Shown: positions 2 through 9,246 of the stretch, piece by piece
Numbering within the stretch: position 1 is the stretch's first letter
How the letters are laid out: every line of letters starts with the position of its first letter
NCBI GenBank assembly: GCA_042217555.1
Contig: JBDGSL010000065.1
Location: 1-11,594, forward strand
Length of the DNA stretch: 11,594 bases
Direction: 5' to 3'
Source of the DNA: Candidatus Nanohalobium sp.
GTDB taxonomy: Archaea > Nanohalarchaeota > Nanosalinia > Nanosalinales > Nanosalinaceae
Program-made: the position numbers and the translations under genes
The notes under the pieces: generated by a model
Database searches by the model: none
What the model was told of the DNA's origin: nothing
What the model saw: only the letters and a program-made list of their open reading frames with translations

Positions 2-754
2 GAGATCGAGTTCGAGGATGAGGACTCGGAAACTCAGACAGCGTGGACGACGTCTTGGGGCCTCTCCACGAGGACGATCGGTGCCTTGATCATGGCACAC
101 GGAGACGATGATGGCCTTAGATTGCCTCCTTCCGTTGCCCCGGTACAAACGGTCGTCGTACCTATCTATCAAGAGGACAACCAGGAAGAAGTCATAGACT
201 ACGCAGAAGAAGTCGCCGGCGAACTCGAAGAGAAAGGCCTTAGAGTCAAATTAGATGACAGGGATCACAGGACTCCAGGGTACAAGTTCAACGAATGGGA
301 GCTGAAAGGAGTACCTCTCAGAGTGGAGATCGGGCCTAACGAAGTACAAGACAACGCAGTTACACCTGTCCGCAGGGACAACGGCGAGAAAGACATGGGC
401 CAGGACAGAGAAGAATTCATAGGGGAAGCCAAAGAAGTACTGGAAGACATCCAGGACTCACTCTACAGCGAACTGGAAGAGTATCTGCAGGAGAACATCA
501 GAGAGGCCGACTCAAAGAATGAGATCCTGGCCACGATCGGCAAATCCCGTGGATATGTCAAAACCAAGTGGTGCGGCAACGAAGAATGCGAGGCCGAAGT
601 GAAGGACGAAGTCTCCGCCGAGATTGTAGTACTGCCATTCGAAGAAGACTCCAAGCCTGCTACTATCCAGGAGAAAGATGAGGAAATTGACGGAAAATGC
701 TCTATCTGCGGCGAAGAAGCCGAGAGATGGGCTTACTTTGCGAAAAATTACTGA
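2..754 (+). CDS. proS: Prolyl-tRNA synthetase, archaeal/eukaryotic type (C-terminal part; 5' end lies outside the window)
   Basis: The frame is open from base 2: ...AWTTSWGLSTRTIGALIMAHGDDDGLRLPP (class II motif 3 region). It continues with the anticodon-binding domain (DDRDHRTPGYKFNEWELKGVPLRVEIGP), the C-terminal Zn-binding WCG..EC..CSIC and a terminal Tyr (FAKNY). Confidence 0.97.
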   Translation, partial: EIEFEDEDSETQTAWTTSWGLSTRTIGALIMAHGDDDGLRLPPSVAPVQTVVVPIYQEDNQEEVIDYAEEVAGELEEKGLRVKLDDRDHRTPGYKFNEWELKGVPLRVEIGPNEVQDNAVTPVRRDNGEKDMGQDREEFIGEAKEVLEDIQDSLYSELEEYLQENIREADSKNEILATIGKSRGYVKTKWCGNEECEAEVKDEVSAEIVVLPFEEDSKPATIQEKDEEIDGKCSICGEEAERWAYFAKNY

Positions 755-5024: not shown

Positions 5025-6143
5025 AACATTTCTCACCCCTTCTACCGGTCCCTGTCCATGATCGCTGTATTCAGTGCCGGTGGCTTCAAGTGATTCTACT
5101 GCTGAATCAATTAACTGTATCTCGTTGGTACCGTCCTTGAAGAACTGATAGCTCATTGCATCGCTGACATCATCACCGTAGTTAATGGCCTCCGGGCTGT
5201 ATCTCTCAGGGGTGAAACCTTCCGCCGATAGCTTACTGGAAACATCCCATGCAGATTCGTGGTTGGCGTCGAACTCTACTCCAACCCAGCGCACATCTTC
5301 ATCTTCGACAGCTTCATCTATCGCTGTCATCGCCTCGTCCATGGACTGATCTCCGTCCGGAAGCACCTGGAAACTAGCCATCTTGCCGACTTCGTCATCG
5401 TAGACCTTCTGTTCTACACGGTAGCCTGTATCATCTACATCTTCTGGACCTACATGCAGATTTCTATCAAGGTTTTCATCCCTCTCGCTGTTGACACCGG
5501 AGAGAACATTGTCCACAAGACCTACGGTATCATCGGTGACATACACATCACGAGGATTTCCTTCTGTATGCTGGAAGTTGCCGTCGGGATAAACCATAGG
5601 AACCACTGTTTCACGGCCTTCTCCAGCGAATACCTCAGGGTACTTGTTCAGGCTGACACCTTCAGGTACTGCTCCCTTCTTTTCGTGGCCGTGCTGAGTC
5701 TTCGCATGAACAGAGGAGACAGGATGTGTAACATACCTGTCGGCGTCCGACTGTCTAGCTGTTTCAACCCTCTGATCTACCAGATCCTGGTAGAAAGGTG
5801 CGCCTTCCATTTCCTGAAACTCTGGGTCCAGAACAATCCCTCCGAACTCGGCCTCATGGCCATCACGGTGATACTTTACGGAGCCAGTACCGACAACAGT
5901 ATCCTCCGGTACTTCTTCGCCATCGACTTCCTGACCTCCAGCTACTTCCACTACAAAGTTGTCACTGCCTTCTCCGGGAATCACCTCTTCTTCAACCATT
6001 TCAGGGTCTGTGAAGGCCACAAAAGGATAGTCTTCGTAGACTGCGTTGTAAGCTCCTGCTATACCTTCAGCATCGAGCTCCTGTTCTCGGGCAGGTCTTA
6101 CTTTGTAATCTACTGATTTCTGTTCTTGCTCCAAGTAGGCCAC
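5013..6143 (-). CDS. Acidic GNAT-fold (N-acetyltransferase-like) protein with a C-terminal domain; start codon uncertain
   Basis: VRPA...IA.AY..VYEDYPF...DPE, VVGTGSV, AEFGGIVLDPEFQ and H...Q...EKKG..PEG follow the GNAT secondary-structure pattern. The acetyl-CoA motif A (Q/RxxGxG) is degenerate. GTG 6143 is immediately preceded by an in-frame TAG. Confidence 0.7.
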   Translation of the reverse strand: MAYLEQEQKSVDYKVRPAREQELDAEGIAGAYNAVYEDYPFVAFTDPEMVEEEVIPGEGSDNFVVEVAGGQEVDGEEVPEDTVVGTGSVKYHRDGHEAEFGGIVLDPEFQEMEGAPFYQDLVDQRVETARQSDADRYVTHPVSSVHAKTQHGHEKKGAVPEGVSLNKYPEVFAGEGRETVVPMVYPDGNFQHTEGNPRDVYVTDDTVGLVDNVLSGVNSERDENLDRNLHVGPEDVDDTGYRVEQKVYDDEVGKMASFQVLPDGDQSMDEAMTAIDEAVEDEDVRWVGVEFDANHESAWDVSSKLSAEGFTPERYSPEAINYGDDVSDAMSYQFFKDGTNEIQLIDSAVESLEATGTEYSDHGQGPVEGVRNVSVS

Positions 6144-6220
6144 CTATAGCTGCTGTTTTCTTGCTGATTTTTGCCTGTTTGTGCGTTGCGTCGTGTTGTA
6201 ATGGTGTGTTGTAGTGTCAT
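6110..6220 (-). CDS. Putative upstream/leader ORF (36 aa) overlapping the GNAT-like gene out of frame
   Basis: A strong SD GAGGTGA (6233-6227) lies 6 nt before ATG 6220. The ORF reads MTLQHTITTRRNAQTGKNQQENSSYRWPTWSKNRNQ* and overlaps the GTG 6143 ORF by 34 nt. Confidence 0.45.
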   Translation of the reverse strand: MTLQHTITTRRNAQTGKNQQENSSYRWPTWSKNRNQ

Positions 6221-6234
6221 TGAATTTCACCTCA

Positions 6235-6273
6235 AAAAGGAGAATGAGACTGTAGAGGTCTTTAGCTCTACAG
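6235..6273 (-). terminator. Hairpin followed by a pyrimidine/U tract (terminator- or attenuator-like)
   Basis: Perfect 8-bp stem CTGTAGAG (6250-6257) / CTCTACAG (6266-6273) with an 8-nt loop, followed on the minus strand by TCTCATTCTCCTTTTT directly before the SD. Confidence 0.5.
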
Positions 6274-6352
6274 AATCAGGATAATCAGCAGGATAATAGA
6301 AATACCAGGTGCTAGCTGATCAAGATCTGAAACAGAATTAAATATTCGAGAA

Positions 6353-6501
6353 CCAAGGCTAGGACTACTGCTGGATGTACTCCAGAACGCAGAATCCGTT
6401 GGTTTCTGCTTGAGCAGTCTTTCCTCCTGTGGAAAGCTGCAGAACGCGGCCACCCTTCTTGAGCTGGCCTTCAATAAAGCGTCCACCCGTGATTGCCTTG
6501 G
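6353..6501 (-). ncRNA. Candidate structured RNA (closing stem plus four-hairpin junction) in the leader of the GNAT-like gene
   Basis: Nested pairings were read by hand: CCAAGGC/GCCUUGG, GGAC/GUCC and UAUUG/CAGUA, enclosing four hairpins. G-U pairs favour the minus strand. It starts about 25 nt downstream of a TATA box. Confidence 0.55.
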
Positions 6502-6525
6502 ACATACCTGCAGTTAAGTGATTAC

Positions 6526-6537
6526 TTTTTATAAAAA
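6526..6537. promoter_or_regulatory. Palindromic TATA box TTTTTATAAAAA, probably driving the minus-strand leader transcript
   Basis: Perfect 12-bp AT palindrome about 25 nt upstream of the 5' arm of the predicted closing stem (6501). Confidence 0.55.
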
Positions 6538-6650
6538 TTCTGCTTAACAGGCCACTGTGGAGGAGTTCCACATACCTATTTAAAGATAAGAGAGGAATCT
6601 TTGCTTAGTAAGTTTTAATCCGTGAAAGTTTTTCTCGGGGATGATTTATA

Positions 6651-7298
6651 ATGGAAAATAACCAGGTTCAGACGAAACAGGACATGGACGAATTCAAAAC
6701 AGGCACGACTACAGTAGGCCTAACAACCGAAAGAGGAGTTATTCTGGCAGCTGACCGGAGAGCCTCAATGGGACGGCTCACGGCTTCGAAGTACGCCAAG
6801 AAGGTGTACAAGCTGGATGACAAGATAGGCCTTACCATCGCTGGCAGCGTAGGCGATGCACAGAAAATTATCAGAACCATGAGAAGTCAATTGAACCTGC
6901 ACAGGCTTGAAACAAAGGAGCTATCCGTTAAAGGAGCAGGAACATTACTGTCTAACATACTACATGGACACAAGGCCATGCCGTTCTTCAACCAGTTCAT
7001 CATGGGCGGAATTGAAGACGGCGAAGGAGTACTCTACGACCTGGATCCTGCAGGAGGCCTGATGAAGCACGAGAAGTTCACGGCCACAGGATCAGGAAGC
7101 CAGATGGCTTACGGAGTACTGGAGAACGACTACGAAGACGGCCTCGACCATGAAAAGGGAAGAGAGATGGCAACCAAGGCAATTCAGGCCGCAATGGAGA
7201 GAGACACGGCATCAGGAAACGGGATCATGGTTGCAGAGATTACAGAAGAAGGCTACAATGTTCTCGACGAGAAAGAAGTTGAGAGTGTTCTGCAGTAA
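6651..7298 (+). CDS. psmB: 20S proteasome beta subunit (with propeptide)
   Basis: Propeptide cleavage site KTG/TTTVG, then AADRRAS, GSVGDAQ, DPAGG, ATGSGS..AYGVLE and RDTASGNG. It lies next to aCPSF1, the conserved archaeal synteny. Confidence 0.97.
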   Translation: MENNQVQTKQDMDEFKTGTTTVGLTTERGVILAADRRASMGRLTASKYAKKVYKLDDKIGLTIAGSVGDAQKIIRTMRSQLNLHRLETKELSVKGAGTLLSNILHGHKAMPFFNQFIMGGIEDGEGVLYDLDPAGGLMKHEKFTATGSGSQMAYGVLENDYEDGLDHEKGREMATKAIQAAMERDTASGNGIMVAEITEEGYNVLDEKEVESVLQ

Positions 7299-7365
7299 AG
7301 GCCTTCTTATACCTTAACTTTTACTTTAAAGCAATTTACAGCTATTCAATGGATTTGATTTCACA

Positions 7366-9246
7366 ATGGAAGAACTAGAAGACGTAAAGGACATGCTTCC
7401 ACCGGAAGCAAATGTCGACGACATTAAATTTGAAGCATCAGATATAGTAGTGTATACAAACAGCAAAGACTTTTTCCTCGACCACTCAGACATTATCCAG
7501 GAGATAGTATCGGAGCTGAAGAAGAGAGTAGAGGTAAGGCCTTCTTCAAAACTCTTTAAAAAGCCTGAAAACGCTGAGAAAATTTTGAATGATATAGTTG
7601 GGGAAAGAAAGGATGCTGAGATTGACAATGTTATTTTCCAGCCTTCTCTAGGCAAAATGATAATTAGAACCTCTGAGCCAGGTTCGATTATAGGTAAAAA
7701 TGGTTCAGGCCTTGATGAGATAAAGAAGAAGACTCTATGGGCGCCTCAAGTTGAAAGAGTACCTTCTATCAGTTCTAAAGTAGTGGACAGGGCCCGTGAG
7801 CTAACGGTAGAGGATCCTGAGTTCCGTAAGGACTTTCTGCATGATGTCGGGAAGAAGATCCGACTTGATAAATCTGTAGGAGATGAATGGATTAGGGTCT
7901 CTGCGCTTGGAGGCTTTAGACAGGTTGGAAGAAGCTCAGTGCTTCTGCAGACCGAGGAATCAAATGTTCTGCTTGACGCCGGGATAGATCCCTCTGCGGA
8001 ATCCGGCAGTAAGGACAACTATCCTTTCCTGAATGCTCCTGAACTGGATCTCAGGGATCTGGACGCAGTGGTCCTCAGCCACGCTCACATGGATCACGTC
8101 GGTATGATTCCATATCTATACAAGATGGGTTACGACGGTCCTCTGTACACTACTAAACCAACTAGAGATCTGATGATTATGCTGACACTGGACTACATAG
8201 GCCTGGCGCACAGCGAGAACGCGAAGGCTCCTTATGACTCATCTGATATCAAGAAGGCTGTGAAGAGAACGATCACGCCGGAGTACGGGGAAGTAACTGA
8301 TATCACGCCAGATATGAGACTGACTTTGAAGAACGCAGGCCATATAATCGGTTCAAGCCTGGTACATATCCATGTAGGGGAAGGCCTCCACAACCTTCTG
8401 TATACGGGAGACTACAATTACGACTCTACAGAGATGCTGAGGCCTGCGGATACTAATTTCCAGCGTGTGGAGACTATGATTACAGAGTCAACGTACGGTG
8501 GAAGAGATGATGAGCAGACTCCGAGAGAGGAGGCGAACAAGAAGTTTCTTTCAAGGGTCAAGCAGACCTTGAACAAGGGCGGTAAAGTTATTGTTCCTGT
8601 CTTCGCGGTTGGTCGTTCACAGGAAGTTTTAGGCCTCCTGGCGGATGAGATGCAGAGAGACTACTTTGACTACAATGTCTACATTGATGGAATGATTAAT
8701 GATGTGAACGCTCTGCATACAGCCTACCCTGAGTTCCTTTCGAAGAAGGTTCAGAGCAAGGTGAACGATGAGAACTCTCCTTTCCTCATGGACAATATCG
8801 AGACTATTGGAAGCCATGAGGAGAGGAAACAGGTCTACGAGGACGACGCATCGATAATTCTGACAACCTCGGGAAGCATCACGGGAGGCCCTGTAATGTC
8901 ATATCTCCAGGAAGAGGCTCAAGACCCTGACAACACGCTGATCTTTGTCGGTTACCAGTTTGAGGGAAGCCTAGGAAGAGAGATTCAGGAAGGCGCGGAT
9001 CAGGTAGAGATCAACGGTGAAAAAGTCGATGTCAACCTGGATACTTACACAGTGTCAGGTTTCTCAGCTCACAGCGATCGACAGCAGATTATTAACTTCT
9101 CCAAGAACCTGAGAAGCACTCCTAACAAGATACTGACGAACCACGGCGAGGCCTCGAAATGCTTCTCCCTTGCAAGTGCTCTACATAAAATCCTGAATAT
9201 TGACACCTCCGCACCTCAGAACCTTGACGCTATCCGCCTTAACTAG
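7366..9246 (+). CDS. fttA: aCPSF1 / FttA: KH-domain metallo-beta-lactamase beta-CASP ribonuclease and transcription termination factor
   Basis: N-terminal KH region (PGSIIGKNG), then LGGFRQVGRS, SHAHMDH, AGHIIGS, YTGD, ESTYG, FAVGRSQE, GFSAHSD, NHGE and C-terminal APQNLDAIRL. 626 aa. Confidence 0.96.
   Translation: MEELEDVKDMLPPEANVDDIKFEASDIVVYTNSKDFFLDHSDIIQEIVSELKKRVEVRPSSKLFKKPENAEKILNDIVGERKDAEIDNVIFQPSLGKMIIRTSEPGSIIGKNGSGLDEIKKKTLWAPQVERVPSISSKVVDRARELTVEDPEFRKDFLHDVGKKIRLDKSVGDEWIRVSALGGFRQVGRSSVLLQTEESNVLLDAGIDPSAESGSKDNYPFLNAPELDLRDLDAVVLSHAHMDHVGMIPYLYKMGYDGPLYTTKPTRDLMIMLTLDYIGLAHSENAKAPYDSSDIKKAVKRTITPEYGEVTDITPDMRLTLKNAGHIIGSSLVHIHVGEGLHNLLYTGDYNYDSTEMLRPADTNFQRVETMITESTYGGRDDEQTPREEANKKFLSRVKQTLNKGGKVIVPVFAVGRSQEVLGLLADEMQRDYFDYNVYIDGMINDVNALHTAYPEFLSKKVQSKVNDENSPFLMDNIETIGSHEERKQVYEDDASIILTTSGSITGGPVMSYLQEEAQDPDNTLIFVGYQFEGSLGREIQEGADQVEINGEKVDVNLDTYTVSGFSAHSDRQQIINFSKNLRSTPNKILTNHGEASKCFSLASALHKILNIDTSAPQNLDAIRLN

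Follow-up and report, generated by a model that had tools for sequence, protein, structure and literature searches.

The window analysed here, a stretch of 11,594 nucleotides from Candidatus Nanohalobium sp., carries on its minus strand a gene for a GNAT-like protein, preceded by a long spacer in which a TATA box, a short leaderless open reading frame (ORF0), several helices and hairpins and a second short ORF follow one another (Table 1). The TATA box was already part of the original prediction and was confirmed at its place 30 nt ahead of the ATG; the GNAT-like label given there agrees with language-model features only (nearest ESM Atlas clusters GNAT, 0.96), the product having no match in Pfam. 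The protein has 14 homologs, itself included, with identities of 46-83%. Divergent from it, at 6651-9246, lie genes for a proteasome beta subunit and for FttA/aCPSF1, the termination factor invoked in the model below, an adjacency that is probably plain synteny. No bacterial-type terminator was found in 6100-6700, and no LeuA-family gene in the genome to which the window belongs (94% complete), which nevertheless has trpE-like and prephenate dehydratase genes (L439, L443).

Table 1. Elements of the leader and the gene behind it, in window coordinates.
Feature	Position	Strand	Remarks
TATA box of the leaderless transcript	6526..6537	-	Predicted; 30 nt before ATG 6505; spacing alike in homologs
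Leaderless ORF0, frame 0, 46 codons	6365..6505	-	Conserved in start and frame, variable in length
Predicted +1 shift site 1: SD-like GGUGG, E-site CGC, P-site UUU, A-site AUU (Ile)	6473..6487	-	Putative shift
Predicted +1 shift site 2: SD-like GGUGG, CGC, P-site GUU, A-site CUG (Leu)	6440..6454	-	Putative shift
Degenerate third copy of the Leu site, frame 0, without GGUG	6383..6397	-	Present in L003 too
Open +1 frame between site 1 and the stop behind the codon run	6268..6477	-	Open across all indels of L002, L004, L005
Ile/Leu codon run closing the +1 frame	6271..6303	-	6 Ile and 4 Leu in last 12 codons
P1 helix, 6501-6495 with 6359-6353	6353..6501	-	Pairs bases directly after start codon; kept in ortholog group
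Hairpin H1	6448..6469	-	3′ arm is SD-like part of site 2
Hairpins H2, H3, H4	6371..6440	-	Optional insert, missing in three orthologs
Hairpin across the +1-frame stop codon	6250..6273	-	Local z -1.16, not significant
Pyrimidine tract, five U at end	6234..6249	-	Putative role in termination
Shine-Dalgarno (SD)	6227..6233	-	
Second short ORF, 36 codons	6110..6220	-	A/C-rich start; overlaps start of main gene
GNAT-like gene, 376 aa	5013..6143	-	Predicted regulated gene

The original prediction saw in the minus strand of 6505-6353 a riboswitch or small RNA with a five-way junction, in which three closing helices (P1 to P3) enclose four hairpins (H1 to H4), and tied it to the GNAT-like gene. All the helices it named are able to pair in the window's genome, and the minus-strand fold (-58.3 kcal/mol, z -3.11) was equalled by only one of 200 shuffles; the plus strand does nearly as well (z -2.60, again one in 200), so folding alone leaves the strand undecided. 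P1 and H1 to H3 appear in both the minimum-free-energy and the centroid structures and H4 in the centroid, whereas P2 and P3 are absent from both, the 5′ strand of P2 being paired there with 6447-6442. In three orthologous loci with the same two flanking genes, proteasome and GNAT-like (L002, L004, L005), ORF0 has only 24-25 codons, H1 is retained, P1 keeps 6-7 of its 7 pairs, and H2, H3, H4 and P3 are deleted, so that the five-way junction is a local mosaic; the folds of these orthologs are not significant (z -1.1 to -1.6), and H2 and H3 recur with altered stems or loops in the paralogous leaders L003 and L013. An alignment of seven leaders is 77% paired, above all 500 column shuffles, under a structure that came from one of its own rows, with H1 paired in 89% of cells. 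P1 passes a shuffle test in only 8 of the 60 leaders introduced below, the window's own leader being among the failures, and was rejected as a general leader feature.

A covarying multi-helix core was not found across the homologs; what they conserve in the ORF at 6505-6365 is a start codon, a frame and a 15-nt motif in phase with the codons, a coding pattern that speaks against a riboswitch. The statements that the stretch resembles no known RNA held: no Rfam match overlaps it at E<=10, it contains no tRNA, and SRP RNA and an RNase P candidate sit elsewhere in the genome, the latter (L016, G000:C29:40405-40729) as a divergent form scoring 41.9 bits against a cut-off of 84. A T-box riboswitch, considered because of a segment (6457-6444) that we take to resemble the T-box bulge, was rejected, as Rfam gave no match and the likeness is not kept in homologs. 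RF03001, the leuA-Halobacteria motif, was likewise rejected for the window, the best covariance-model score in the genome being 19.5 bits, at another place, against a cut-off of 47.9; it exceeded this cut-off in none of 150 genomes, with one weak match, L244, within coding sequence. Set against the minus-strand z score and the pairing of the seven rows, which both favour a riboswitch or sRNA, the two helices missing from the fold, the non-significant ortholog folds, the empty Rfam search and above all the ortholog deletions, by which this reading is largely refuted, make it hardly credible; an undescribed cis-regulatory element tied to the GNAT-like gene is the part of the original prediction that stands.

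The motif common to the homologs is GGU GRN YRY KUU followed by what we call a test codon, all in the frame of an ATG spaced about 30 nt from a TATA box; a frame-0 stop comes within a few codons after it, while the +1 frame is open to a later stop. The folded stretch was matched at the DNA level in 12 of 61 genomes, and a pattern search with the motif through 70 genomes of the order gave 129 matches, against 20 for a reversed control (the control summed by hand). Sixty-five leaders passed an automatic filter and five were removed by eye, four because they had no TATA box (L030, L053, L082, L099) and one at a contig end (L111), which left 60 leaders in 40 genomes of one family. When the TATA-spaced ATG was chosen regardless of frame, 51 of 56 matches having one were in frame 0; a relaxed pattern gave 86 of 86 sites in frame 0, 60 of which had been selected for that. 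In a search at the peptide level, for which most loci had already been preselected by the DNA pattern, the first codon is GGU in 94 of 96 matches and the P-site codon UUU or GUU in 95 of 96; judged from the sequences, conservation of the motif is at the nucleotide level. The named records that carry the element are Candidatus Nanohaloarchaea: among at least 120 loci from a wider contig search that covered 15 of 64 parts of the collection, ten passed the leader filter, seven from Nanohaloarchaea and three apparently by chance, and 26 matches in other families of the same order, obtained with a pattern in which the A-site codon was fixed, held no convincing leader. The window's genome contains the anti-SD sequence, and GGUGR stands 4 nt (GGUGGA 3 nt) before the P-site codon, the mode for SDs of start codons being 6 nt. 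A tRNA on the NUU P-site codon would find UUN after a +1 shift and could re-pair with it. Among unusual members, L107 (~101-200, minus strand) has three tandem sites, for Val, Ile and Leu, and a run with all three amino acids, and L063 (~156, minus strand), which failed the leader filter and lies outside the 60, has a Leu site followed by 200 or more open +1-frame codons that lead into amidotransferase-like sequence, which makes it an example, within this family, of the element inside a gene.

In 44 of the 60 leaders, here called run-type, the +1 frame closes with a run of branched-chain codons, and the composition of the run follows the test codon. Among these 44, two or more Ile codons occur within the last 12 in 20 of the 21 leaders with an Ile site and in 4 of the 23 without; a Leu run is found in all 39 with a Leu site and in none of the five without, and a Val run in all eight with a Val site and in 3 of the 36 without, although p values for this matching are overstated because the genomes are related. 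Mixed runs accompany tandem sites, as in the window, where an Ile site and a Leu site go with a run of both codons. Ile in the runs is written AUU or AUC 113 times and AUA never, and the sites use the same codons; in the window's genome AUA makes up 41% of the Ile codons in long ORFs, and it is read by a different tRNA from AUU and AUC. Against the correspondence stand four run-type leaders with at least three Ile codons in the run and no recognised Ile site. Most run-type leaders are followed by an ORF of 22-38 codons with an A/C-rich start, whose stop overlaps the start of the main gene; this overlap of second ORF and main gene resembles a natural bicistronic loading cassette.

The remaining 16 leaders have no run (in this count L047 is classed as run-type and L075 as run-less). 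In all 16, the +1 stop ends 0-20 nt past the start of the next gene, whereas the frame-0 stop lies 41-65 nt before it; stop/start overlaps of this kind couple translation in Haloferax (PMC6728339). Genes behind the leaders, of which Pfam at its cut-off named 11 of 54, include threonine dehydratase behind four Ile-only leaders, a LeuA-family gene behind one Leu leader, and glutamine amidotransferase behind six. When the test codon was left free in the pattern, the window's genome yielded a site for Gly ahead of glyS, for Pro ahead of proS (two copies), for Thr ahead of the start of a TGS-domain gene, and for Trp ahead of a trpE-like gene. The two proS genes (L440 and L442, in G000:C9 and C83) are near-identical and have the same leader with two Pro sites, either by duplication or through assembly redundancy.

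A metagenome search with the LeuA-family protein from behind the Leu leader retrieved 80 loci, 65 of them distinct and mostly GC-rich, in which the element lies within the gene itself. The enzyme is in the +1 frame in 57 of the 58 that have a TATA-spaced ATG, and in 43 of the 65 neither ATG nor GTG nor TTG occurs in frame within 150 nt (counted by hand; four of these are truncated at a contig end). Sites were recognised in 62, mostly as GCG GAU CGA GUU CUU, and the A-site codon of the first site is a Leu codon in 61 of these; aligned to the anti-SD, the haloarchaeal GAUC and the nanohaloarchaeal GGUGR stand in identical register to the P-site codon. Two Haladaptatus genes, one of them annotated as citramalate synthase, have UUU AUU, with Ile as the test codon, at the corresponding place. 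A FastTree phylogeny of 122 LeuA-family proteins, drawn from the leuA-like loci and from archaeal genomes (part of 222 matches), includes 40 whose genes have a site by the rule used and 82 whose genes do not: all eight Ile sites are in the clade named after the annotated citramalate synthase, a name that rests on this one annotation, NCBIfam not separating LeuA from CimA, and the 32 Leu sites are in the other clade, with an exception in L326, a Leu site on a long branch of the citramalate-synthase clade. This Natrinema locus matches RF03001 at 1352-1404 (73 bits) over an out-of-frame ORF before the LeuA-family gene, and the conserved 3′ end of the RNA motif is the frame-0 codon pair AUU-CUC; what is curated as an RNA motif may be a frameshift signal. 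One leuA-like gene (L247:1240-1322) has an in-gene Val and then a Leu site and lies directly ahead of an ORF that was recognised by eye as acetolactate-synthase-like.

The start, frames, sites and run, and the matching of test codon to run and to gene, are features of the sequence itself, and from them we put at roughly three in four the probability that the window's leader is a leaderless ORF with Ile and Leu test codons, on which a starved ribosome slips into the +1 frame, reads on to the run and thereby switches on the GNAT-like gene. In this model the 16S anti-SD would pair with GGUGR close behind the P-site, and, as in prfB, re-pairing of the P-site tRNA on UUN instead of NUU would compete with the A-site tRNA: where charged tRNA abounds, the test codon would be read and translation would stop in frame 0; with charged tRNA scarce, SD pairing would push the P-site tRNA to UUN and the ribosome into the +1 frame. 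For the in-gene form the shift would yield the enzyme, and in run-less leaders it would deliver ribosomes to the next start. The output of run-type leaders is the weakest part of the scheme. When amino acids are plentiful, the frame-0 stop would leave bare a stretch, on average 81 nt long and 37% U when no shift occurs, exposing it to cleavage and termination by aCPSF1/FttA; a ribosome that has changed frame would shield this stretch while pausing at the run beside the U tract, so that transcription could reach the second ORF and the main gene coupled to it. The GNAT-like gene is accordingly predicted to be on when either Ile or Leu is scarce. Protection from aCPSF1/FttA is favoured because the bare stretch is U-rich and U-rich motifs are where aCPSF1 ends transcription in archaea (PMC7515710), the odds being about even between it on one side and SD control and mRNA decay on the other. 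H1 masks the SD-like bases of site 2 and P1 the start region, and both may tune loading.

A shift whose effect is on translation, the displaced ribosome opening, in the manner of ermC, an anti-SD helix at the second ORF instead of blocking termination, is possible if unlikely. In several Leu-run leaders the downstream SD is folded against a pyrimidine stretch, its unpaired probability being about 0.2 (C45, L052, L108), and a ribosome placed at the stop raised SD accessibility in 12 of 41 leaders; yet it lowered it in 8 of 41, there was no significant overall shift (p 0.13 for the stall, 0.09 at the stop), and the window's own leader was unchanged (0.46, 0.47, 0.49). With the ribosome footprint masked on the run, the downstream SD was again not consistently opened (up in 6 of 41, down in 13 of 41, the window unchanged), and opening of the SD is thus not supported by this folding, which left out L003, L077, L085, L087 and the leaders without a recognised second-ORF start. 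Transcriptional slippage was rejected by inference, since the runs have at most three U and the GUU sites none.

Two further explanations dispense with the frameshift. In one, the GUG of the motif starts the +1 ORF, making it an ordinary Ile/Leu attenuation leader peptide, with ORF0 incidental or serving only to load ribosomes. A GUG does stand in the +1 frame of all 86 nanohaloarchaeal sites, where the pattern imposes it, and a codon run followed by a stop and a U tract is the classical layout of an attenuator; but the test codon that matches run or gene is read in frame 0 only, control codons are missing from the +1 frame of run-less leaders, the sites in haloarchaeal and other genes mostly lack a GUG, and the leuA-like genes without an in-frame start codon would be left unexplained, all of which makes this improbable. 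Even a little less credit is due to a mere stall at the frame-0 test codon that alters folding or termination and leaves the +1 frame unread: P1 engages the start region and H1 the SD-like bases of site 2, so that a stall could refold the leader, yet the +1 frame that indels leave open, the runs that match the test codon, the overlap of stop and start in run-less leaders and the enzymes encoded in the +1 frame of the in-gene form would all go unexplained, and P1 outdoes shuffling in only 8 of the 60 leaders.

Frameshifting in the +1 direction, the reading preferred here, has its nearest relative in prfB, the gene of bacterial release factor 2, whose shift site is CUU-UGA. Shared with it are an SD-like stretch some 3 nt ahead of a P-site NUU, the direction and the competition at the A-site (PMC5009743); the A-site codon of prfB is a stop, whereas the leaders have a sense codon there, which changes with the amino acid, and their site, an archaeal one, comes in tandem and is placed here in a separate leader. 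In ermCL and E. coli pheL, too, ribosomes that change frame within a leader ORF move on into the spacer, with an effect on the gene that follows, but the former answers an antibiotic (ketolide) and the latter is described as incidental, neither having a programmed amino-acid test codon in the accessible part of the account (PMC5009743). With leader-peptide attenuation, as in ilv and leu and in the leaderless poly-Cys ORFs of mycobacteria (as far as the accessible descriptions go), the leaders share a cognate run closed by a stop, behind which come a hairpin and a U-rich tract, except that here the run is reached only after a change of frame and that copies with no run are coupled straight to the start that follows. 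According to the available text of Atkins et al. (2016; PMC5009743), no productive hungry-codon frameshifting under starvation is known, and in that of De Lise et al. (2021; PMC8211752) the one demonstrated archaeal frameshift is a -1 case.

For leuA2 of Haloferax volcanii (HVO_1510), an out-of-frame ATG has been noted, with speculation on slippage under leucine shortage and an in-frame CTG start proposed as the alternative; the accessible part of that account names no shift site, test codon or SD, nor Ile, Val, synthetase or leader forms (Pfeiffer and Dyall-Smith, 2021; PMC8305020). RF03001 is curated as an RNA hairpin, and the window does not match it. Beyond this speculation on one Haloferax gene, we found no description of the shift site in the literature within reach, which excluded subscription papers, and nothing on it in the accessible parts of GapMind 2026 and Gelsinger 2020. 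The window's leader probably belongs to an apparently unpublished family of +1 frameshift leaders that sense amino acids, and it has tandem sites for Ile and Leu with a run to match. We lean, somewhat beyond even odds, towards the wider proposal that many archaea gauge amino-acid supply by an SD-driven +1 frameshift in which the A-site codon names the amino acid, the window being a two-stage OR gate for Ile and Leu.

If so, the SD-driven +1 frameshift would be the archaeal counterpart of attenuation and T-boxes, and a leader in a host-dependent nanohaloarchaeon would report how well its host feeds it. Confirmation of the shift would establish a general amino-acid sensing mechanism for archaea, built on a codon-programmable sensor of about 15 nt that is directly testable in Haloferax volcanii, and would explain haloarchaeal leuA and cimA genes that have no start codon or are unannotated (L326, L327).

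Other arrangements occur at the starts of LeuA-family genes. Five of them (L374, L382, L393, L430, L431) mostly have no in-frame ATG and carry no +1 site, and a conserved TTG behind an SD-like stretch may be their start. Three more (L338, L347, L348) share a short CGAUUUAG-like motif, conserved and located about 40 nt ahead of the start, with a frame-0 stop after UUU or AUU, and this is possibly another variant of the element.
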